Numbered from the stretch's first letter, positions 4,013 to 57,384 are shown. The stretch: DNA of 64,000 nucleotides from Patescibacteria group bacterium (GCA_028710985.1 JAQTTB010000001.1:19280-83279); one strand, 5' to 3'. Notes: a model not told the origin generated them from the sequence alone. Program-made: numbers and translations.

Positions 4013-4732
4013 TTATTTTTTACTCTCCGGAGCCGCACCCCGCTTTGCCTCTTCCCGCCCCTCTTTCACCGCCTCGGCAACATACCGGGTCATGAGCTCA
4101 ATTGATTTAACCGCGTCATCATTTGCCGGTATGCAATAAGCAACGCCGGTTGGATCAATATTCGTGTCACAGAGCGCAACCAGTTTGACGCCGCGGTTAT
4201 CGGATTCGGCGCGCGCGGTTTTTTCGTATTTCAGATCAACCACGAAAATCGCATCCGGAATTTTATTGAGTTCCTGGATACCGCCGATTCTCTGGCGCAA
4301 TGTTTCAATCTCGCGCGCGAAAACCAATTGCTCCTTTTTTGTATATTTCTTAAGTTCGCCTTTTTCCTGGCGCTTCTGCAGATCACGGAACTTCCGGAGC
4401 AATATGAGAATCTCACTAAAATTCGTAAGCATTCCGCCGAGCCACCGCTCGGTAAGATACGGCGCCCCGCATTCAATGGCGTAGCGCTTCACGATATCCT
4501 TGGCCTGGCGCTTCGTGCCGAGAAATAGCACGACTCCGCCGCGCGCCACGGTTTGGCGCACGAAATCCAGAGCCTTCTCCAGGTATTTCTGCGTTTCCTC
4601 CAGATTGATGATGTGTACATTATTTCTCGCGCCGAAAATGTACGGTTCGGCTTTGGGATGCCATCGGCCGGTCTGGTGCCCAAAATGCACGCCGGCTTCA
4701 AGCATCTCCAATATTGTTGGTAGTTTTGGCAT
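4013..4732 (-). CDS. rpsB: 30S ribosomal protein S2
   Basis: 239-aa ORF: LLEAGVHFGHQTGRWHPKAEPYIFGARNNVHIINLEET..., plus a basic/acidic C-terminal tail. Confidence 0.95.
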   Translation of the reverse strand: MPKLPTILEMLEAGVHFGHQTGRWHPKAEPYIFGARNNVHIINLEETQKYLEKALDFVRQTVARGGVVLFLGTKRQAKDIVKRYAIECGAPYLTERWLGGMLTNFSEILILLRKFRDLQKRQEKGELKKYTKKEQLVFAREIETLRQRIGGIQELNKIPDAIFVVDLKYEKTARAESDNRGVKLVALCDTNIDPTGVAYCIPANDDAVKSIELMTRYVAEAVKEGREEAKRGAAPESKK

Positions 4733-4898: not shown

Positions 4899-4972
4899 TA
4901 GCTTGTAGGAAGTAGCTTGTAGCTTGTAGGACGCGACCTATTAAGATCCTACAAGCTACAAGCTACAAGCTA
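4899..4972 (+). repeat. hairpin built from tandem 7-nt AGCTTGT words in the leader of the 698-aa membrane-protein gene
   Basis: TAGCTTGTAGCTTGTAGGA (4913-4931) is the exact reverse complement of TCCTACAAGCTACAAGCTA (4947-4965), with a 15-nt loop. Extra word copies flank it (4899-4910, 4966-4972). It is preceded by an extended -10, TGTTAAAAT (4891-4899), and ends 2 nt before the ATG at 4975. Confidence 0.9.
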
Positions 4973-7071: not shown

Positions 7072-7109
7072 AAAAGTACGAGTCGTCTATATGCAACCCG
7101 TACTTTTTT
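7070..7109. terminator. bidirectional terminator between convergent genes
   Basis: AAAAAGTACGAGT...ACCCGTACTTTTT forms a ~13-bp stem with one mismatch, an A-run on the 5' side and a T-run on the 3' side. It lies between the stop at 7069-7071 (+) and the stop at 7109-7111 (-). Confidence 0.6.
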
Positions 7110-8275
7110 TATTTTACCAACTCCAGCAATTTGCTGATATAATTTTCCAGTCCATATTCCGCCACCGTCTTCCGACAGGCCTCGCTCATGCCCGCAAGCC
7201 GCGCCGGATCCGCTATGAACGGCTTAATTTTCGCAAGCAGCTCGTCTTTCGCCCCCGGCGTAAAAGTCCACCCGTTCTCCCCTTGGCGCACGAGCTCCCC
7301 GGCTCCGCCAATGCGCGATACAAGCACCGGCACTCCGGCAGCCAGGCTCTCGGAGATTACGGCCGGCGAATTCTCGTAGCAAAATGACGGCACGATGGCG
7401 AGATCCGCCCCGGAAAAAAGTCGTCCAATCTCTTCACGCGGCCGCGGACCTAAAATATTTATTCGCGCATCGCCCGCGGCGATTTTTTTTATTTCTCCAA
7501 GATCCGAACCACCACCCGCAACCGCAAGATGCCAATCGCCGGGCAGATCCTTAAGGGTTTCAACCAGCCACCGCGCGCCCTTGTGTTTCTCAATCTGGCC
7601 GAGATACAGCAGATTAAGCCCGGGGTGCAATATTTTTTCCGCCATCCCTGCCAGGGGCGCGGGATTCGGCAAAACCTCAACGCGCGAGTCTTTAAAAAAT
7701 CCCTTATTTTTATAAAATTCCGCGAGCCAGCGCGACGGCGAAACAATGAGCCGCGGCGAACCAAAAAGCCGGCGCGAGTACGCTTCCCAGATCTTCCGCA
7801 CGAACGAACGCTCCGCCTTTGCTTCTTCCCCCCAGAGCATGAGTCCGTTCGGCGCAGAAAGCTGAATGTCGTGTGCCACGTGCACCCAGCGCTCGCTCTC
7901 TGCCTTGAGCGCCAAAACTCCGAGCATGCCCAGGCCCCTAAGATTATGGCTTACGATAAGATCCGGCACTTCTTCCCTAATCGCGCGCCGCATCATGCCC
8001 AAACCCGCAAGGCTCATGGCGTCCAGCGCGTGCCAGATCGCGCGCGCCGCAAAACCGTGCTCTCCGATATTTTTATACCAAAAAATATTAAGCGGAAAAA
8101 AGCGGCAAATTTTAATGCCATCCGCCTTGTCGCAGGCAAAACCGCGCGGACCGCTCGAGAGCACCGCCACCTCGTGCCCGGCATCGCGAAACCCGCGCGC
8201 CTGGAGTTCAGCCACCCGCTCGGCTCCGCCCCGCGCCTCGGGCGGATACAAATTTGAGACAATCAGAATCTTCAT
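7109..8275 (-). CDS. glycosyltransferase, GT-B fold, family 4-like
   Basis: 388-aa ORF with N-terminus MKILIVSNLYPPEARGGAERV and the C-terminal E-x7-E region CYENSPAVISESLAAGVPVLVSRIGGAGELV. Confidence 0.85.
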   Translation of the reverse strand: MKILIVSNLYPPEARGGAERVAELQARGFRDAGHEVAVLSSGPRGFACDKADGIKICRFFPLNIFWYKNIGEHGFAARAIWHALDAMSLAGLGMMRRAIREEVPDLIVSHNLRGLGMLGVLALKAESERWVHVAHDIQLSAPNGLMLWGEEAKAERSFVRKIWEAYSRRLFGSPRLIVSPSRWLAEFYKNKGFFKDSRVEVLPNPAPLAGMAEKILHPGLNLLYLGQIEKHKGARWLVETLKDLPGDWHLAVAGGGSDLGEIKKIAAGDARINILGPRPREEIGRLFSGADLAIVPSFCYENSPAVISESLAAGVPVLVSRIGGAGELVRQGENGWTFTPGAKDELLAKIKPFIADPARLAGMSEACRKTVAEYGLENYISKLLELVK

Positions 8276-9420
8276 AATTTAAAATATTGCCCACGCATCT
8301 TCCCGACGATTACCGGCCAGGTAAATTCCGCCTCAATCCTCTCGCGCGCCCGCTCCCCCATTTCTTTTACACTCTCCGGATCCGCGGCCATATCGTTAAT
8401 CGCCTTGGCAAGGCCGTTAACATCCTTCGGCGCCACCAGCGCGCCGGTTCTGCCGTCCTGCACCACATAGCGCACGCCCGGAAGACTGCTCGCGATCACC
8501 GGTTTTCCGCAGGCGCCGGCTTCGAGCGCCACGAGCCCGTAGGCTTCGGATTTATCAACCGAAGGAAATGTGAGCGCGTCGGCCAAATTATAATATTGCG
8601 GCAATTCGCGGTCATCCACTCCCCCGGCAAAAAATACGCGCTCCCCCAGGCCGGCGGAGGCGACGATCTGCTCAAACTCCGGCCGGCGGTCGCCGTCTCC
8701 CACGACAAGCAATTTAATCTTTTTATCTTTGACTGTCTTTACTGCCTCAATCAATTTATCCAGTCCCTTGAAATAATGCGCGCGGTCCAATCCGCCGACA
8801 AAGAGCAGGACAAAATCGCTGGCTAGAATATTATATTTTACGGCGAGCGTCTCCAGCCGGTGGCCGGGCGAAAAAAATTTCTCGTCCACCCCGAGATTTG
8901 AAACCACGAATTTTTCCGGATCCTGAGCCACGAATTTCGCCAGATCCCCGGCCTGGGCGTAATCAAGCGTGGATACAAAAACCTTATCCGCGGCCGCGAG
9001 AATCCGCCGCAAAAATAACCGCCGGTATAATCTGAAAAACAACCCTATTGCTCCCCTTCCTACCGTATCCATATGATACGTAACAACCAGTTTGTTCTTT
9101 TGTTCTTTTGTTCTTTTGTTCTTTTTCCAAAAAAGAGCCGCTTCCGCTCCGCCAAAAAACGGATAGTGCAAATGAACGACATCAAATCCGTCCAGCATGT
9201 CCGCAAGATGCGGCACCCAGGCGGCATTGCCGTAGCGGATGACCGGCTTAAGATAAATTACGTTAAAATCAAACTTCAGCCGCTCGGCTCCCCGGGGCGT
9301 CGGGCAAAACACCGTCACCTCGTCGCCGAGACGCGCGAGCTCGCGCGCGTGCGCGTATGCCACGTTGCCCATACCGCCGCGATAAGGAGGAAATGTCGAT
9401 GTGATTATCGCTATCCTCAT
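8272..9420 (-). CDS. glycosyltransferase, GT4-like, carrying an internal 8-nt x4 tandem repeat
   Basis: 382-aa ORF: MRIAIITSTFPPYRGGMGNVAY...KSEAYGLVALEAGACGKPVIASSLPGV. 4-nt overlap with the downstream GT4. Confidence 0.85.
   Translation of the reverse strand: MRIAIITSTFPPYRGGMGNVAYAHARELARLGDEVTVFCPTPRGAERLKFDFNVIYLKPVIRYGNAAWVPHLADMLDGFDVVHLHYPFFGGAEAALFWKKNKRTKEQKNKLVVTYHMDTVGRGAIGLFFRLYRRLFLRRILAAADKVFVSTLDYAQAGDLAKFVAQDPEKFVVSNLGVDEKFFSPGHRLETLAVKYNILASDFVLLFVGGLDRAHYFKGLDKLIEAVKTVKDKKIKLLVVGDGDRRPEFEQIVASAGLGERVFFAGGVDDRELPQYYNLADALTFPSVDKSEAYGLVALEAGACGKPVIASSLPGVRYVVQDGRTGALVAPKDVNGLAKAINDMAADPESVKEMGERARERIEAEFTWPVIVGKMRGQYFKL
9091..9122 (-). repeat. perfect octanucleotide tandem repeat (TTTGTTCT)x4; sense strand (AGAACAAA)x4
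   Basis: Four exact contiguous copies read directly (9091-98, 9099-106, 9107-114, 9115-122). They encode codons ~100-110 (KKNKRTKEQKNK) of the GT4 gene. The unit length is not a multiple of 3. Confidence 0.95.
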
Positions 9421-9450
9421 AAATTAATCAGCTTCGATGCCTTGTTTGGT

Positions 9451-9593
9451 TTAGTCAAAAGTTAAAAGTCAAAAGTCCAAAGTCAAGTCTAAAATTTTTT
9501 AGTCCAATCTCTCCAGCTGAATGTATCTATAACTTTTTGACTTTTAACTCAACTTTTAACTTTAGACTTTAGACTTTTAACTACAAAACAAAC
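9451..9593. repeat. intergenic inverted block of 7-nt periodic words (AAAGTYN x5 versus CTTTWRA x5-6)
   Basis: The left block, 9451-9494, carries GTTAAAAGTCAAAA (9461-9474) and AAGTCTAAA (9485-9493). The right block carries their complements: TTTTGACTTTTAAC (9535-9548, 14/14), GACTTTTAAC again (9572-9581) and TTTAGACTT twice (9561-9569, 9568-9576). It fills the 173-nt gap between two co-directional GT genes. Confidence 0.75.
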
Positions 9594-10712
9594 CTACCAA
9601 AATATAATTAGTCGTGCAATTAAAAAATAAAGATTAAACAACGGATTAGCGATTTTAAGCGCCCAATTATTAATTTCCTGATACTCAATCTTCCCTGTGA
9701 AATGACGAAGCACTTCTTTATCCCCGATACTTCTCGCGCGCGCGATTCTCGCGTGCTTGACGAAGAGATACGGCCAGTGCCACGGCGCGATCATCCAAAG
9801 ATATGCCTTAAGCTTCTCGCGCCACCAGCCGGACTTGATGGAAAAAATAAACTGCCCGAGCTCCATCGCGAGAAAGGCCGGCAGAAACACGAGCTGGGTC
9901 AGAAATTTATAATCGCAAAAATATAAAATAAAACGATTTCGCTCCATCCAGTAATATTTTGAAATACTCCGGCTGAATTCATATTCGTGATACACAACCG
10001 ACCGCGGCGCGAGCACGTTCACGAACCCGCCAAGCCGGAGCCGCCAGCCCAGATCCAGGTCTTCGTGATACGCAAAAAGTTTTTCATCAAAAAGCCCGGC
10101 ATCGCGCAAGGCGCCGATCTTGTATAAAACCCCGGCTCCGGAGCCGTAAGCAATTTCCGGAAGCCCGATAAAATCGCGTTCGCTCCGCGCCGCGCGCGAA
10201 CCGCCGCAAAATCCGAATCCCAGATAATGAATCATGTTGCCCGACGAATTAATGAGTCCGCGCTCGGGCCAGAGCGCGAGCAGAGACTGCACCGAACCGA
10301 TTTTCTGATTTGATTCCGCCGCATCGACGGCATGGCGCAAAAAATCCGGCTCAACCCGCGTATCGTAATTTATTAAATAAACATAATCAAAACCCTGCAC
10401 CTGCCTGCCGGTAGGCAGGGCCATTGCATACTCAATCGCGCGGTTGTTTCCGCCGGCAAAGCCGAGATTCGTGTTCATGGGCATAAAGTGAATCTTCGGC
10501 AGCCCCTGGGGCGGCGACTGCATTATCTCCAGAATGCGCTCGCGCGACCCGTCGGTTGACGCATTGTCAACAATAACAAGCTCAACCGCCTCCCGCGGAT
10601 AATCCAAGAGCGCGAGCGATTCAATCCAGGCATCTAAAAAACGCCGCGCCTTCCAGAGCACGGCGATAATTGCCACTCGTTTTACATCCTGATTATTCAT
10701 GCTTTTTTGCAT
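9594..10712 (-). CDS. glycosyltransferase family 2 (rhamnosyltransferase-like)
   Basis: VAIIAVLWKARRFLDAWIESL...VIVDNASTDGS, then DYVYLINYDTRV and YHEDLDLGWRLRLGG. The ORF-track start at 10838 is an extension overlapping the upstream gene. ATG at 10712 (MQKSMNN) or 10700 is more likely. Confidence 0.8.
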   Translation of the reverse strand: MQKSMNNQDVKRVAIIAVLWKARRFLDAWIESLALLDYPREAVELVIVDNASTDGSRERILEIMQSPPQGLPKIHFMPMNTNLGFAGGNNRAIEYAMALPTGRQVQGFDYVYLINYDTRVEPDFLRHAVDAAESNQKIGSVQSLLALWPERGLINSSGNMIHYLGFGFCGGSRAARSERDFIGLPEIAYGSGAGVLYKIGALRDAGLFDEKLFAYHEDLDLGWRLRLGGFVNVLAPRSVVYHEYEFSRSISKYYWMERNRFILYFCDYKFLTQLVFLPAFLAMELGQFIFSIKSGWWREKLKAYLWMIAPWHWPYLFVKHARIARARSIGDKEVLRHFTGKIEYQEINNWALKIANPLFNLYFLIARLIIFW

Positions 10713-11705: not shown

Positions 11706-11731
11706 AAAACTACTTTCGCATCAATATTATC

Positions 11732-11960
11732 GTCATTCCCGCGAAGGCGGGAATCCAGAAACAGTATACCTTGCGGATTCGATTTATAAACTGTCACACA
11801 AATCACTCCAAAGCGGATTGCAGTCTTCAATGAATTTAATCTTTTAGACCCTTTCCACTTATTGGAGGATGCAAATATAGAACTGCCGATAATCGGACAT
11901 AGCATAAATAAGTAGCCCCGAGATTAATTGGTTGTGGATTCCCGCCTTCGCGGGAATGAC
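11732..11960. repeat. MITE-like unit bounded by 26-bp perfect terminal inverted repeats, each a REP-type hairpin
   Basis: GTCATTCCCGCGAAGGCGGGAATCCA (11732-11757) is the exact reverse complement of TGGATTCCCGCCTTCGCGGGAATGAC (11935-11960). The arms are 177 bp apart. Each arm is itself a palindrome (ATTCCCGC-GAAG-GCGGGAAT). It occupies the gap between two co-directional genes. Confidence 0.7.
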
Positions 11961-11964
11961 AGTT

Positions 11965-13082: not shown

Positions 13083-13114
13083 TTTGTTCCATTGTTCTAT
13101 TGTTTTATTGTTCT
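13083..13114 (-). repeat. 8-nt periodic word array (sense AGAACAAT AAAACAAT AGAACAAT GGAACAAA) across the GtrA-like stop codon
   Basis: The plus strand reads TTTGTTCC ATTGTTCT ATTGTTTT ATTGTTCT. This is the same word family as 9091-9122 and 53967-54074. The stop codon is at 13097-13099. Confidence 0.8.
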
Positions 13115-13552
13115 CTTAAAAATGAATATTTTCTGAAAAAAGAAATTAATAAAATAGAGAATGGCATACACCACAAATTTTGCCGCCACGTCCCAGATTC
13201 CGAGGTAATGCACCGTGACAAACAGCAGGCCTTCGCCGATCAAAAAAACCACAAGCGCGTTAATCCAATAAACCGCATACTGCCTGACCACGCGCTTATC
13301 CGTATCGCCGAAAGTATAAGTCTTGTTAAACCAATAACCCACGATCGCGCCGAGCGTCATGCTCACAAAATTCGCCAAAAGATAATGTATGCCGAAAATT
13401 TTTGTGAGCAATAGATACGTCCCAAAATCAACGCCGGTCGCCCCGGTCCCCACGATCGTGAACCGCCACAGCTGTTTGATGGTTTGAAAAAGATTTGATT
13501 TTTGAGATATATTTTTGAGATTTGAGATTTGAGATTTGAGATTATCTTCCAT
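13097..13552 (-). CDS. GtrA-like family membrane protein (putative lipid-linked sugar translocase)
   Basis: 151-aa ORF with 4 TM helices: RFTIVGTGATGVDFGTYLLL...LANFVSMTLGAIVGYWFNKTYTF. Confidence 0.75.
   Translation of the reverse strand: MEDNLKSQISNLKNISQKSNLFQTIKQLWRFTIVGTGATGVDFGTYLLLTKIFGIHYLLANFVSMTLGAIVGYWFNKTYTFGDTDKRVVRQYAVYWINALVVFLIGEGLLFVTVHYLGIWDVAAKFVVYAILYFINFFFQKIFIFKRTIKQ
13514..13541 (-). repeat. perfect heptanucleotide tandem repeat (TTTGAGA)x4 in codons 4-13 of the GtrA-like gene
   Basis: Exact copies at 13514-20, 13521-27, 13528-34 and 13535-41, plus an isolated fifth copy at 13501-07. The array also lies in the divergent promoter region of the priming transferase gene. 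Confidence 0.95.
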
Positions 13553-37338: not shown

Positions 37339-38449
37339 ATCGTTTTATTATATTCAGGGTATCGGTCGCCGTATCTTTCCACGTGCGGTTTAATTCACCT
37401 TCTTTTATATCTGGACAAATTCTTTCATAATCAGATTCCTCGGCCAAACGAGCAATGTCTTTTTTTATTTCTTCGCGATCCATTGGATTAGTCAAAGTGG
37501 ATCTACCTTCAAAAATTTCTTCCATACCATTATCCCTGGTAATAATCAGGGGTTTCCCGAGTTTCATGCATTCCATGCCAAAATTCGGGCTGATTTCCGA
37601 AAACGAAGGCAGGATGCAGGCATAGGCCAATTTTATCCTTTCAATAACCCCTTGATGCGGAATGCCGTCAAATATTTTTATATATTCATCTGACCGGCTC
37701 TCTCGAACAATTCGTTTTAAATTATCTTTTTCGGGACCATCGCCATAAACACTCAAAAAAATCTTTTTTCCCTCGGTACGAAGCTCGACAAAAATTTTAA
37801 TTAAATCAGCCAGATTTTTTAATTTTATCAATCTGCCAGCAAATAAAAATATTTTATCCGGTTCAGCGTAACTCAATGACTGCCCTTTTAAAATCTGAGG
37901 GAATGGATTTAAAATAACGCTGCTCTTGGCCTCAATGAAAGGAAATACTTTCAAATAAATATTTCTCTGAAAATCGGTAGAAAAAATAATATGGGAACTG
38001 CGTGTTAAAACCAATTTAATAAGACGAAAGGCCATGCCACGCGTATATAAGTTTCTGCCGTAATATTCCGATAGCGTAACCCTTTGGCCGGATTCAGCCG
38101 CTTTCTCCCAAAGATAATCTCCACCGAGACGCAAAAATATTTTTTTTCTTAAATATACATTGGCAATTGCGGTTGGCAAACCAGCGCTCAATATATCAAA
38201 TGTATAAATGAGATCCGCCTTTCGTCCGTGTCGCAAGACATTAATAAAAAAGGTGAAATATCTAATATAAACACACGGCTTTCTTGAAACACCGTGGATT
38301 CTCATCCCCTCCACCGCATTTGGCTGGCCATATGTAATTATTTCGATCTCATGGCCTAATTTTTTTAGCTCCGCAGATAAATTTTCTACATACGTTGCTG
38401 GCCCGCCAATATCCGGTGGAAATATGCCCGTTGTGATCAATATCTTCAT
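37319..38449 (-). CDS. glycosyltransferase, GT4-like
   Basis: 376-aa ORF: MKILITTGIFPPDIGGPATYV...FSEISPNFGMECMKLGKPLIITRDNG. Confidence 0.8.
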   Translation of the reverse strand: MKILITTGIFPPDIGGPATYVENLSAELKKLGHEIEIITYGQPNAVEGMRIHGVSRKPCVYIRYFTFFINVLRHGRKADLIYTFDILSAGLPTAIANVYLRKKIFLRLGGDYLWEKAAESGQRVTLSEYYGRNLYTRGMAFRLIKLVLTRSSHIIFSTDFQRNIYLKVFPFIEAKSSVILNPFPQILKGQSLSYAEPDKIFLFAGRLIKLKNLADLIKIFVELRTEGKKIFLSVYGDGPEKDNLKRIVRESRSDEYIKIFDGIPHQGVIERIKLAYACILPSFSEISPNFGMECMKLGKPLIITRDNGMEEIFEGRSTLTNPMDREEIKKDIARLAEESDYERICPDIKEGELNRTWKDTATDTLNIIKRYVLAER

Positions 38450-39558
38450 TTTAAATATTTATCATATTCCCCGCTCACTTGCCGAACAACCTTATCCCAG
38501 TTGAATCTTCCCAACCCCTGAAAAGCATTATTTCTTAATCGTTCGCGCAGTTCCTGGTCGCTAAGAAGACGCTTTATGGCCGCAGCGATGGCTTCCGAAT
38601 CTCGCGGCGCAATTAAAAGCCCGGTTTGATTATCGGAAATAACATCCGGAATTCCGCCGACTCGCGTTCCTATAACTGGCGCCCCGCACGCCTGGGCTTC
38701 AATAAAGACAATACCTAAACCCTCAGCGAGCGATGGACAAATAAATATTTGAGCCTTGCCCATCTCCCTAAGTGTCTCTTCGTGCGGCAGTTTACCCAAG
38801 AGCGTAACCCTGCTCCCCAAATTCAATTCCTTTATCATCCGCTCAATTTCCTGTCTTTTATTTCCCTCCCCAACCATAACCAAATGAGCATTGGGAAATT
38901 CTTGAAAAACCGAGGGCAACGATTTTATTAAATAATCCAATCCTTTTTCCCAGGAGAGTCGCGCCACGCAGACGATTCTTCCCGGGATCGGTTCGGCCTG
39001 ACTTTGTTTTGCCAGCTCAAGGTCAACCCCATTCGGAATAATTACAACCTTGCCCTGATCGGTCCTCAATTTCTTCGCGCGTTCAGCAAGCGACGAGCTA
39101 ATCGCAGTTACAAGATCGGGCGTAGAGTGAATTCTTTTCCAAAGAAATGCGGGAATTTTCTTGCTCGGATCGTCCAGATCGCCGCTTTGTAAAGTCAGGA
39201 TTGTTGTAATTTTTTTATTAAAAATTGAAAAAAGCCACAACGCGATGCCGGCATAGCTCTCCATAACTGCATGAACCAAGTCCGGCTTTAATTTTTTGGC
39301 TAAAATTACAGCAAAAATCGGATACAGCCATTTATCAAAAGAACTGCCGATTCCAACGCGGTAGTACTTAAACTTGTCCCGCTGTTCAAATTTTGGCAGT
39401 TTCTTATCTAATCGAGCGCTGATGATTGTAAAATCATATTCTCCAGCCAGCCGTTCAACCACTTCTTTCACAAACATCTCCGCACCGCTGATAAATGGGT
39501 CGTAAAAGCAAGAAAAAATTACAATTTTTTTTTGTCCATTCATTCTATAAAAAATCAC
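38446..39558 (-). CDS. glycosyltransferase, GT4-like
   Basis: 370-aa ORF (GTG at 39558; alternative ATG at 39543, MNGQKK): LAEGLGIVFIEAQACGAPVIGTRVGGIPDVI. Confidence 0.85.
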   Translation of the reverse strand: MIFYRMNGQKKIVIFSCFYDPFISGAEMFVKEVVERLAGEYDFTIISARLDKKLPKFEQRDKFKYYRVGIGSSFDKWLYPIFAVILAKKLKPDLVHAVMESYAGIALWLFSIFNKKITTILTLQSGDLDDPSKKIPAFLWKRIHSTPDLVTAISSSLAERAKKLRTDQGKVVIIPNGVDLELAKQSQAEPIPGRIVCVARLSWEKGLDYLIKSLPSVFQEFPNAHLVMVGEGNKRQEIERMIKELNLGSRVTLLGKLPHEETLREMGKAQIFICPSLAEGLGIVFIEAQACGAPVIGTRVGGIPDVISDNQTGLLIAPRDSEAIAAAIKRLLSDQELRERLRNNAFQGLGRFNWDKVVRQVSGEYDKYLK

Positions 39559-41337: not shown

Positions 41338-41396
41338 GAACGAATTTTTGGCTATATCAAGAGAAAAAACAAAAAAAAGAAATAGAGAAAAAGACT

Positions 41397-41789
41397 ATGG
41401 GCGAAACTATCAAATCATTTGAGGACTTGCTCGTTTGGCAAGAGTCGCACAAGCTCATGATTGACGCTTATGGGTTCGCGGACCGCTATTTGCCGCCGGA
41501 AGAAAAATACAATCGCATTTCTCAAATAAAACGCTGTTCAAGCTCAATCCCTGCCAATATCGCCGAAGGTTATGGTCGATTTCATTTCTTGGAAAATATC
41601 CAATATTGCCGGCAAGCCCGAGGTTCACTTGATGAACTTAAAAACCACATCATCGCCGCCCGAGACCTAAAGCAGGCTCCTCCGGAAGAATGTGCCAAAT
41701 TTATCCAAAAATGCAATTATGTACGGGCTATCCTAAATAACTACATTAACAAAACTCATGATCTCTATATTGAAAATAAGCAAAAATAG
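41397..41789 (+). CDS. four-helix-bundle protein (23S rRNA intervening-sequence protein family)
   Basis: 130-aa ORF: FEDLLVWQESHKLMIDAYGF...RISQIKRCSSSIPANIAEGYGRFHFLENIQYCRQARGSLDELKNHI. Confidence 0.85.
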   Translation: MGETIKSFEDLLVWQESHKLMIDAYGFADRYLPPEEKYNRISQIKRCSSSIPANIAEGYGRFHFLENIQYCRQARGSLDELKNHIIAARDLKQAPPEECAKFIQKCNYVRAILNNYINKTHDLYIENKQK

Positions 41790-41854
41790 TATATCACCCG
41801 TTTGACCACATTTTTCTTCTTTTCTCTTTTTCCTTATTTCTCAATACAACCCTC

Positions 41855-43028: not shown

Positions 43029-43263
43029 TAAAATCCCTCTCTGCCTCTCCCTTCCTGCCTGCCGGCAGGCAGGTTGCATACTTTTGGTTACAAAAGTATG
43101 TCCTGCTGAAAGCAAACAAGAGTGGTGCTAGAAAAGATAATTATTGCCCAGACAGGTGGCAGGCAAGAACTTAAAAATCCCAATATTAAAACAACTTGTA
43201 CGATAATATATAATAGGATTCCCCCGGTACATTGAACCTGGATTCCCGCCTTCGCGGGAATGA
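43029..43263 (+). repeat. mosaic palindromic-unit repeat, copy A
   Basis: In order: AAAATCCCTCTCTG..CTCTCCC; the 20-nt perfect palindrome CCTGCCTGCCGGCAGGCAGG (43053-43072); the hairpin CATACTTTTG-GTTA-CAAAAGTATG; a ~130-nt body; and the REP hairpin TGGATTCCCGCCTTCGCGGGAATGAC (43238-43263). 43051-43263 aligns with 56985-57198 at roughly 85-90% identity by eye. Confidence 0.85.
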
Positions 43264-53702: not shown

Positions 53703-53999
53703 ATGTCTTCATCCATTCGCTTATCCGTATCCGAAGCCGCCCGGCTTTTTGGCATTAGTGAAAAAACCCTGCGCCGCGCCATCATTAATAAGGAAATCAA
53801 CTATATCGTGGTTGCCGGCCGGTACAAGCTAAATTTTGAAAGCCTGGTCAAGTGGTCCCAGCAAAAAACCACGGTGCGCCGCAAATCCGAAAAATACGGC
53901 ATCGACCAATTTGTGGATAAATGGCGCCTCTCCGCCACCCTCTACTCCCCCAACCCACCCGCCACGGAACAAGAGAACAATTCAACAATACAACAATAG
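53703..53999 (+). CDS. small helix-turn-helix DNA-binding protein (excisionase/MerR-type HTH)
   Basis: 98 aa: LSVSEAARLFGISEKTLRRAIINKEINYIVVAGRYKLNFESLVKW. The C-terminal 11 codons are encoded by the SAACAA word array. Confidence 0.7.
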   Translation: MSSSIRLSVSEAARLFGISEKTLRRAIINKEINYIVVAGRYKLNFESLVKWSQQKTTVRRKSEKYGIDQFVDKWRLSATLYSPNPPATEQENNSTIQQ

Positions 54000-54074
54000 A
54001 ACGACCTATAAAAAAACAAGCGTTTTACCTATGCTTGTTTTTTTGTTGTATTGTTGAATTGTTGCGTTGTCCGC
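53967..54074. repeat. two facing 8-nt periodic word arrays around a bidirectional terminator hairpin
   Basis: 53967-54006 reads GAACAAGA GAACAATT CAACAATA CAACAATA GAACGACC. 54043-54074 reads TTGTTGTA TTGTTGAA TTGTTGCG TTGTCCGC. 53976-53996 and 54043-54063 are exact 21-nt reverse complements. The inner terminator is AAAAAAACAAGC-GTTTTACCTAT-GCTTGTTTTTTT (about 54010-54044). Confidence 0.9.
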
Positions 54075-56984: not shown

Positions 56985-57384
56985 TTCCTGCCTGCCGGCA
57001 GGCAGGTTGCATACTTTTGGTTACAAAAGTATGTCCCGCTGAAAGCGAACAAGAGTGATGCTAGAAAACAATAATCAATACCCAGACAAGCGGCAGGCTG
57101 TGGCTAGAAAATCCCAATATTAAAACAACTTGCACGAAAATATTTAATAGGATTCCCCCGGTACATTGAACCTGGATCCCCGCCTTCGCGGGGATGACGA
57201 AGAGAGCACTTTGCCACTTACCGTCATTCCCGCGAAAGCGGGAATCCAGAAACAAAGCCCCTCCAAAATCCCTCTCTGACACGTCGCTCGCGAGCGACGT
57301 GTCTCTGTCTCCCCCTTCCTGCCTGCCGGCAGGCAGGTCAGCCACCCCGAAACTTTTTGGTTACTTTTTGGTTACAAAAAGTAA
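56985..57384 (+). repeat. mosaic palindromic-unit repeat, copy B (expanded)
   Basis: 56985-57198 parallels copy A, with the same palindrome, hairpin, body and REP. It is followed by an inverted second REP (57223-57248), then the AAAATCCCTCTCTG...CTCCC unit interrupted by the palindrome ACACGTCGCTCGCGAGCGACGTGT. A second CCTGCCTGCCGGCAGGCAGG follows (57317-57336), then the hairpin TTACTTTTT-GGTTAC-AAAAAGTAA. Confidence 0.85.

Follow-up and report, generated by a model that had tools for sequence, protein, structure and literature searches.

A perfect octanucleotide array inside a GT4 glycosyltransferase gene of a Patescibacteria group bacterium: tolerated loop expansion or phase-variable switch?

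Introduction

Does an eight-nucleotide repeat inside a glycosyltransferase gene switch that gene on and off, or is it a mutational accident that the protein tolerates? The question is raised by a single 64,000-nucleotide (nt) stretch of DNA from a Patescibacteria group bacterium (GCA_028710985.1 JAQTTB010000001.1:19280-83279), in which four exact octamer units lie within a gene for a family GT4 glycosyltransferase. The whole stretch is referred to as the window, and coordinates are those of the window unless the contig of a relative is named. An original prediction, made from the sequence alone, had proposed this array as a candidate slipped-strand switch. The reading favoured here, with a probability of about one half, is that the tract is a slippage-born and tolerated loop expansion with latent frameshift capacity.

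The octamer tract and its reading frames

The features at the center of the analysis are the following.

9091..9125, minus strand: perfect octanucleotide array (Tandem Repeats Finder, raw sequence and variant modelling).
8272..9420, minus strand: array-bearing GT4 gene of 382 amino acids (aa), GT-B fold, retaining-type (Pfam, exact match, AlphaFold and alignment A1).
7109..8275, minus strand: second GT4 gene (open reading frame list, sequence and Pfam); the same pair is present in the related contigs L002, L003, L027 and L030.

Tandem Repeats Finder (TRF) reported a TTTGTTCT array at 9091-9125, with a period of 8, 4.4 copies, 100% matches and a score of 70. The coding strand of this interval reads AAA(AGAACAAA)4, i.e. 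(AGAACAAA)x4.4. The proposed perfect fourfold octamer inside a GT4 gene was thus recovered both by TRF and in the raw sequence; position 9122 ends the fourth unit, and the tract reaches 9125. Its placement at about codons 100-110 of a 382-aa glycosyltransferase was likewise confirmed, the tract being codons 99-110 (K99-K110), with the peptide KKNKRTKEQKNK, at relative position 0.26 of the open reading frame (ORF). Perfect arrays with a unit of at least 5 nt and at least three copies were found three times in the window, as compared with a mean of 0.1 and a maximum of 2 in 100 approximately dinucleotide-preserving shuffles. A contingency locus carries a perfect or near-perfect tract within an ORF or promoter, and this tract, with 100% matches over 4.4 units, is intra-ORF. 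Among the ~13 GT4 genes of the window, a simple sequence repeat (SSR) other than a homopolymer was found only in the array-bearing gene, and the only other gene of the window containing such a repeat is a GtrA-like gene.

The gene was rebuilt in silico with one to eight octamer units. Alleles of 1, 4 and 7 units were full-length (374, 382 and 390 aa, respectively), those of 2, 5 and 8 units ended after ...RTNWLLRIIWIR at 114, 122 and 130 aa, and those of 3 and 6 units stopped at 142 and 150 aa. A change of one or two units in either direction therefore yields products of 114-150 aa, in line with the frameshift that had been anticipated for gain or loss of one unit, and a change of three units keeps the frame. 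A further mark of a contingency locus, namely a unit not divisible by three whose gain or loss switches the frame and truncates the product, is found with this 8-nt unit. By arithmetic, the tract is able to act as a frameshift switch. The unit lacks a stop codon in all sense frames, and the three frames together spell KEQKNKRT; the peptide encoded by the tract is therefore always hydrophilic and Lys-rich.

The array-bearing gene and the second GT4 gene overlap in an ATGA (8272-8275) that contains the stop of the former and the ATG of the latter, and the second gene is probably translationally coupled to the first. Because of this overlap and of a premature stop ~800 nt upstream, an off-frame allele would probably lower translation of the second GT4 by polarity. 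Programmed frameshifting at GG-AAA-AAG was also considered and was dropped, the heptamer being imperfect and no evidence bearing on it.

The glycosyltransferase, its cluster and its loop

What does the array interrupt? In Pfam, the ORF at 8272-9420 matched Glycos_transf_1 (PF00534; 4e-39, 134 bits, cut-off 26.4) and Glyco_transf_4 (PF13439; 6e-18, 65.8 bits, cut-off 28.5). The 382-aa product is identical to P0001/NCBI MDD4994873.1, annotated as 'glycosyltransferase family 4 protein [Patescibacteria group bacterium]' on a 744-kb contig, and its relatives of solved structure include, by sequence relatedness, BshA, MshA and PimB. An E292-x7-E300 motif in the C-terminal domain is invariant across alignment A1. 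The AlphaFold model obtained from this alignment has a mean predicted local distance difference test score (pLDDT) of 89 and a predicted template modelling score (pTM) of 0.86, and displays beta-alpha alternation in both halves. Both Pfam domains, two Rossmann-like domains and the E-x7-E motif, which together characterize the GT4 class with a GT-B fold, are thus present.

The model places a helix at residues 91-100, coil at 101-109 and a strand at 110-115, with a mean pLDDT of 69 for block 101-110; the tract is predicted to encode this low-confidence helix-to-strand connection of the N-terminal Rossmann domain. From the general topology of such folds, the loop presumably lies on the face opposite the inter-domain catalytic cleft. 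In 26 homologues, the flanking segments HLHYPFFGGAE and TYHMD are nearly invariant, and the segment between them is always K/R-rich and variable in length. The commonest loop of the closest clade is WKKKNPRKKL; the 1-unit allele would have WKKNKL, which is close to it but ~3 residues shorter.

Neighbours of the array-bearing gene include GT2, GtrA, Bac_transf, Wzx-like and epimerase genes, a context in which it, like contingency genes, acts on a surface or interaction structure. One orthologous contig, L030, shares the full gene order (rpsB, tsf, 698-aa membrane protein, GT4, GT4, GT2, DUF2304, GT2, epimerase, GtrA, Bac_transf). The host cluster is a conserved Patescibacteria envelope-glycan cluster, and the whole window is a glycan island with ~13 GT4-type genes.

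The same loop in orthologues

Orthologues were taken from syntenic clusters and have 57-62% identity to the window protein. In L003 (protein P0004, 57% identity), TRF reported an array with an 8-nt period at this very loop (1814-1851, 4.8 copies, 73% matches, unit GGCAAAAA); its insert of 12 codons equals that of the window in length and encodes the peptide QKGKKAQEQKGK. In L030 (P0005, 59% identity), an array is found at 10295-10325 (3.9 copies, 78% matches, unit AAGAAATA). Self-identity at a lag of 8 nt is 0.71 for L003 (shuffle p = 1e-4, or 6.5e-4 when any lag is allowed) and 0.77 for L030 (p = 0.004, or 0.02 when any lag is allowed). As a background, 363 non-overlapping A-rich coding windows of 36 nt were drawn from ~203 kb of related loci; a lag-8 identity of 0.70 was reached in 2 of the 363, one of them being the L003 loop itself. 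An array was looked for at the GT4 loop of L031 (P0002) and none was found. L027 (P0007; 3300-3365) and L029 (P0013; 350-400) contain, in the same GT4 loop, a GC-rich in-frame insert of ~50 nt with two mini-palindromes (CCGCC..GGCGG and GCGCC..GGCGC), absent from the close relative P0012; from its sequence, this insert looks like a small palindromic element placed in a permissive loop.

The consensus of the unit at this loop varies by lineage (AAGAACAA, AAGGGCAA and AAGAAATA), reflecting either concerted evolution of an old array or repeated independent expansions; the neighbour-joining tree of the orthologues has no support values and does not decide between a single and a recurrent origin. 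By these comparisons, 8-nt arrays and other DNA-level insertions recur or persist at this loop, always in frame, and its repeats turn over on an evolutionary time scale. It had been proposed that the orthologues would reveal whether the insert is conserved as a peptide. Decayed in-frame 8-nt arrays do exist in L003 and L030, but the window array itself is recent and is not conserved as a peptide.

A separate array was observed in L015, a 42%-identical relative, where a perfect (TCTATTT)x4.6 repeat (4260-4291) lies at relative position 0.05 of a 747-aa ORF with a putative start codon; this ORF adjoins the GT4 pair.

Age and constraint

How old is the array? The sole close relative is L001 (ENA ERZ841149, 1.5x coverage; protein P0003), the DNA of which is 88% identical from window position 9093 downstream, so that the homologous part starts within the tract itself. 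For the 272 codons that follow, the ratio of nonsynonymous (dN = 0.047) to synonymous (dS = 0.47) substitution rates between L001 and the window is 0.10, and because of this low ratio the GT4 gene is considered to be under strong purifying selection. The units of the tract have no differences from one another despite the dS of 0.47, and hence the tract must have formed or been homogenised long after the split from L001.

The upstream side of L001 is different. Directly 5' of a conserved CTG, L001 reads ...GAGAACAAGAGTGTCGGTAAG, unlike the window, and further upstream it encodes an FtsK-like C-terminus rather than a GT4, its segments 1-519 and 474-1350 being joined exactly at the octamer tract. 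A GAACAAGA/CAACAATA array makes up the last codons of the FtsK-like gene and shares 92% identity with window 53967-54002. The junction is either an assembly chimera through a shared repeat family or a true rearrangement. L001 was also considered as an OFF allele created by unit loss or gain; this was rejected, the upstream sequence being the FtsK-like C-terminus that ends in an SAACAA array.

Search for length variants

No relatives above 46% identity were found in back-translated scans of one-genome-per-species contigs and Joint Genome Institute (JGI) metagenome contigs. The exact products of 1-, 2-, 3-, 5-, 6-, 7- and 8-unit alleles were absent from a collection of 15 billion proteins, as was any truncated fragment, a weak negative because only three contigs carry the gene. 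Clustered at 90%, the protein is the single member of its group and occurs on three contigs, and P0003 of L001 was the only high-identity fragment among the top protein matches. When the first 110 aa served as the query, a 95-aa protein of 51% identity was the sole match and even P0001 was missed, which makes this search uninformative. Across the tract, an independent Logan contig (L002) is identical in sequence and has four units. The alleles recovered (three contigs and the NCBI record) thus carry four units only. Of the candidate switch, the structural part has held, in that a perfect, non-triplet, intra-ORF tract lies in a surface-glycan GT4 gene of a candidate phyla radiation (CPR) host and off-frame alleles truncate the product. 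Contingency loci are defined, in addition, by polymorphism of tract length within a lineage, with ON and OFF alleles, and by fast, reversible switching (roughly 1e-5 per generation or more); here, from a very thin sample, four-unit alleles alone were recovered.

The array habit of the lineage

Is the octamer tract peculiar to this gene, or one product of a wider habit? TRF found thirteen arrays of 7-8-nt units with ~3 or more copies at seven loci of the window, nearly all at gene boundaries. Four of the array loci are inverted pairs, of which three fold as very stable hairpins. The arrays and hairpins that bear on the tract are the following.

4899-4972: paired-array intergenic hairpin, RNA fold z = -7.6.
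9442-9600: paired-array intergenic hairpin, RNA fold z = -4.5.
53967-54064: paired-array intergenic hairpin, RNA fold z = -9.9.
53967..54002, plus strand: 8-nt array GAACAAGA/CAACAATA of the same word family as the GT4 tract, in the last codons of an HTH_17 gene; left hairpin arm (TRF).
54035..54064, minus strand: inverted partner array, right arm of the 53967-54064 hairpin, downstream of a convergent GT4 gene (TRF).
13083..13114, minus strand: degenerate 8-nt array of the GAACAA word family, covering the last codons and stop of the GtrA-like gene; solitary and unstructured (TRF).
13491-13543, at the 5' end of the GtrA-like gene: solitary heptamer array, (TCTCAAA)x4.3 perfect (core 13514-13543) within x7.7 degenerate.
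L027 505-576, 1257-1406 and 2882-2959, and L031 316-463 and 1668-1801: array hairpins in relatives.

The hairpin arms are inverted 7-8-nt tandem arrays with a locus-specific unit (TAGCTTG, AGTCAAA, CAACAATA and others). Orthologous spacers in L027 and L031 bear heptamer hairpin arrays as well, and the GT2-GT4 spacer has one in three genera. Three of the arrays of the lineage have the SAACAA word in common. The word SAACAANNSAACAA has nine matches in the window versus 0.04 expected, at 9092-9121, 13084-13097, 53967-53996 and 54043-54064, which bears out the recurrence of the word family at gene 3' ends that the original prediction had noted. The GtrA orthologue of L030 likewise ends in an 8-nt RAACAR array.

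The heptamer array of the GtrA-like gene (13097-13552, minus strand) occupies codons 3-13, in a divergent region common to this gene and the Bac_transf priming-transferase gene, and is a second frameshift- or spacing-capable SSR of the glycan cluster. No such array is present at the 5' end of the L030 GtrA orthologue.

The GT4 tract does not belong to the hairpin-forming class of paired arrays, lacking both the partner array and a fold beyond that of shuffles: an inverted partner was looked for within 1.5 kb and none was found, and its RNA fold is not better than that of shuffled sequences (z = -1.1). No Rfam match was found in the 64 kb, and scans for promoters and terminators remained at chance level. 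The RNA-level role that had been offered as an alternative for this copy is thus unsupported.

Weighing the explanations

According to the favoured explanation, replication slippage would have created a young (AGAACAAA)4.4 microsatellite that adds eight residues, relative to the one-unit state, to the lysine-rich link from helix 91-100 to strand 110-115. In-frame counts (1, 4, 7) would alter only the length of a permissive basic loop and other counts would truncate the enzyme, making the tract an intrinsic frameshift hot spot and a latent switch. The array would be incidental to the 7-8-nt array-making of the lineage, its frame kept by purifying selection, with a low present switching rate and no adaptive tuning. 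Because such arrays are common in the lineage, a mutational origin suffices. At 4.4 units, moreover, the tract is below the cut-off of at least five units for longer repeat units in PhasomeIt, as applied to tetra- and pentanucleotides in Campylobacter (PMC6321876). Several points weigh against this explanation. The tract, 35 nt long and non-triplet, is the sole perfect array with a unit of at least 7 nt deep inside an ORF across the ~203 kb of related loci, and the recurrence of the 8-nt period at this loop in three genera could indicate maintenance rather than accident. Surface-glycan glycosyltransferases are the classic gene class of contingency loci, and the absence of length variants, resting on three contigs and the NCBI record, is weak evidence. 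Finally, in a gene whose dN/dS is 0.1, single-unit steps can reach four identical units only by way of OFF alleles; such intermediates require either fast slippage or tolerated OFF states, both of which favour a real switch.

A genuine contingency locus, in which octamer slippage reversibly switches the GT4 ON (1, 4 or 7 units) and OFF, together with the downstream GT4 by polarity, is a less likely but live possibility; its outcome would be heterogeneity of surface glycans, for instance against phages or in contact with host cells. It is consistent with a perfect non-triplet tract within a glycan-glycosyltransferase ORF, with truncation of off-frame alleles ahead of an ATGA overlap, and with an array that postdates the 88%-identity split by far and so implies continuing turnover. 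Differing unit consensuses among orthologues are what concerted evolution would yield, the GtrA-like gene of this cluster has, at its codons 3-13, a second perfect array able to shift the frame, and octanucleotide precedents exist in H. influenzae losA and other SSRs (PMC2651432). Against it stand the lack of any recovered length variant, the small number of units, the conserved and syntenic nature of a gene under strong purifying selection, orthologous arrays that have decayed locked in frame, the abundance of such arrays outside coding sequence, for which mutation suffices, and the absence of a comparable tract from the other ~12 GT4 genes of the island. Retention of the insert for its peptide, as an effectively stable repeat forming a longer basic loop that might, for example, aid peripheral binding of the GT4 to anionic membrane, is unlikely. 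All homologues have a K/R-rich loop, L003 retains a degenerate insert of the same length, and the three sense frames all encode hydrophilic, Lys-rich residues, but the loop is 4-8 residues shorter in most close orthologues, the perfect identity of the units marks a recent array rather than a conserved peptide, and the membrane-binding role is speculative. A cis-acting nucleic-acid element of the SAACAA family that occurs at gene 3' ends, working as an attenuator or internal terminator, as a platform for RNA-protein binding or as a site of recombination, would account for the word family common to the 13083-13114 and 53967-54064 arrays and for the joining of the FtsK-like 3'-end array of L001 to the GT4 exactly at the tract. 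This is nevertheless improbable, since the GT4 copy has no nearby inverted partner and folds far less well than the paired intergenic arrays (z = -4.5 to -9.9), Rfam, promoter and terminator scans gave nothing above chance, and the L001 junction, at 1.5x coverage, may stem from chimeric assembly. That the tract is an artefact of assembly or sequencing is most improbable of all: tandem arrays often confound assemblers and L001 does break at the tract, but the 35-nt tract is shorter than a read, the independent contig L002 is identical across it, and the same protein is found on three contigs and in the NCBI record.

Comparison with known systems

What distinguishes the GT4 tract from repeats already described? 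Octanucleotide phase variation was reported for the lipooligosaccharide gene losA of H. influenzae (Erwin et al. 2006, cited in PMC6156194), and strain-to-strain heterogeneity of unit number and in-patient frameshift variants are documented for it. Further octanucleotide SSRs were catalogued in H. influenzae (PMC2651432). Octamer units are thus already known and not new; the earlier statement that they would be unusual was overstated. losA resembles the GT4 tract in that 8-nt units lie inside an ORF for surface-glycan biosynthesis and unit number sets the frame by slipped-strand mispairing. The GT4 tract differs in having shown no variant, in belonging to an uncultured Patescibacteria, in its placement at about codon 100 in a structural loop, and in that its gene is part of a conserved syntenic cluster. 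The tetranucleotide and homopolymer contingency loci in glycosyltransferases of Haemophilus, Neisseria, Campylobacter and Helicobacter (PMC2651432, PMC6321876, PMC3315296) are alike in mechanism, in principle, and in gene class. Those genomes contain many loci, whose tracts usually reach or exceed accepted cut-offs and often show a 5' bias, whereas the window has one octamer tract (4.4 units) and one heptamer tract at a gene start among ~13 GT4 genes.

The tandem repeats of Borgs (PMC9879509) resemble the GT4 tract in being perfect and young, in the A-richness of their sense strand and in the partial unit that borders them. Like those of this lineage, they occur between and inside genes, have independent origins and add hydrophilic or disordered segments to proteins (PMC9879509). 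However, Borg intragenic units are always divisible by three (PMC9879509), whereas a single-unit change of the 8-nt GT4 unit destroys the frame. Nor does the tract encode an amino-acid repeat of the Borg type: at the peptide level one period would span 24 nt, or 8 aa, and is present only 1.5 times. Rickettsia palindromic elements are small repeats inserted in frame into permissive protein loops. The GT4 loop is similar in tolerating a DNA-level element in frame, in a surface loop of a conserved enzyme, and the L027/L029 insert is itself palindromic; the window tract, unlike these elements, is a tandem array and not a palindromic mobile element.

Neither SSR phase variation nor intergenic tandem arrays were found reported for Patescibacteria in the literature searches made, and the same searches returned no description of array-built intergenic hairpins in these bacteria. 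It is conceivable, albeit doubtful, that the locus is the first simple-sequence phase-variable surface-glycan switch in Patescibacteria/CPR, set within a lineage-wide system of undescribed 7-8-nt arrays that persist at orthologous positions in different genera (the GT4 loop, the GtrA 3' end and the GT2-GT4 spacer) with units changing in concert. If true, this joint reading implies active renewal of arrays, exploited by selection for ON/OFF variation and for gene-boundary hairpins. For CPR bacteria, which are attached to other cells and subject to pressure from phages, random switching of envelope glycans would be a plausible and testable adaptation, and the locus offers a concrete 35-nt target. 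Even in the absence of switching, it shows how a permissive loop allows a microsatellite of non-triplet unit to become fixed in an enzyme under strong constraint, flags an undescribed class of hairpins made of tandem arrays in these genomes, and cautions that metagenome assemblies are broken or wrongly joined at such arrays, as in L001. The array-built hairpins, position-conserved across genera, may be a more original lead than the tract.

Other repeats and regions of the window

Some further repeats were observed outside the GT4 pair. A PF05635 gene (23S rRNA intervening-sequence protein, Avd-like) at 41397-41789 lies between inverted 8-nt arrays at 41359-41394 and 41811-41842, one purine-rich and the other pyrimidine-rich; no rRNA was found in the window with Rfam. 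The Avd-like gene was considered as a sign of a diversity-generating retroelement, and the idea was dropped because no reverse transcriptase was found among the ~44 larger window ORFs scanned against Pfam. Palindromes of the form ATTCCCGC-N4-GCGGGAAT occur five times, as compared with 0.1 expected (11735-11754, 11938-11957, 43242-43261, 57176-57195 and 57226-57245), and two of the copies, in inverted orientation, form the ends of an intergenic element of 259 nt (11706-11964). From its sequence, this element looks like a miniature inverted-repeat element. We take the palindromic motif to be reminiscent of the ATTCCC-N8-GGGAAT repeats of Neisseria.

The region 16000-41000 has a GC content of 35-42%, versus ~50% elsewhere, and is dense in GT4, GT2, methyltransferase, asparagine-synthase-like and radical-SAM/SPASM genes; this block probably represents a glycan island, variable or gained by horizontal transfer, beside the conserved cluster. 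Within it, a run of nine A on the coding strand (39525-39533), borderline for homopolymer slippage, is found at relative position 0.02 of the GT4 gene 38446-39558 (minus strand), and probably simply reflects the A/T-richness of the low-GC island.

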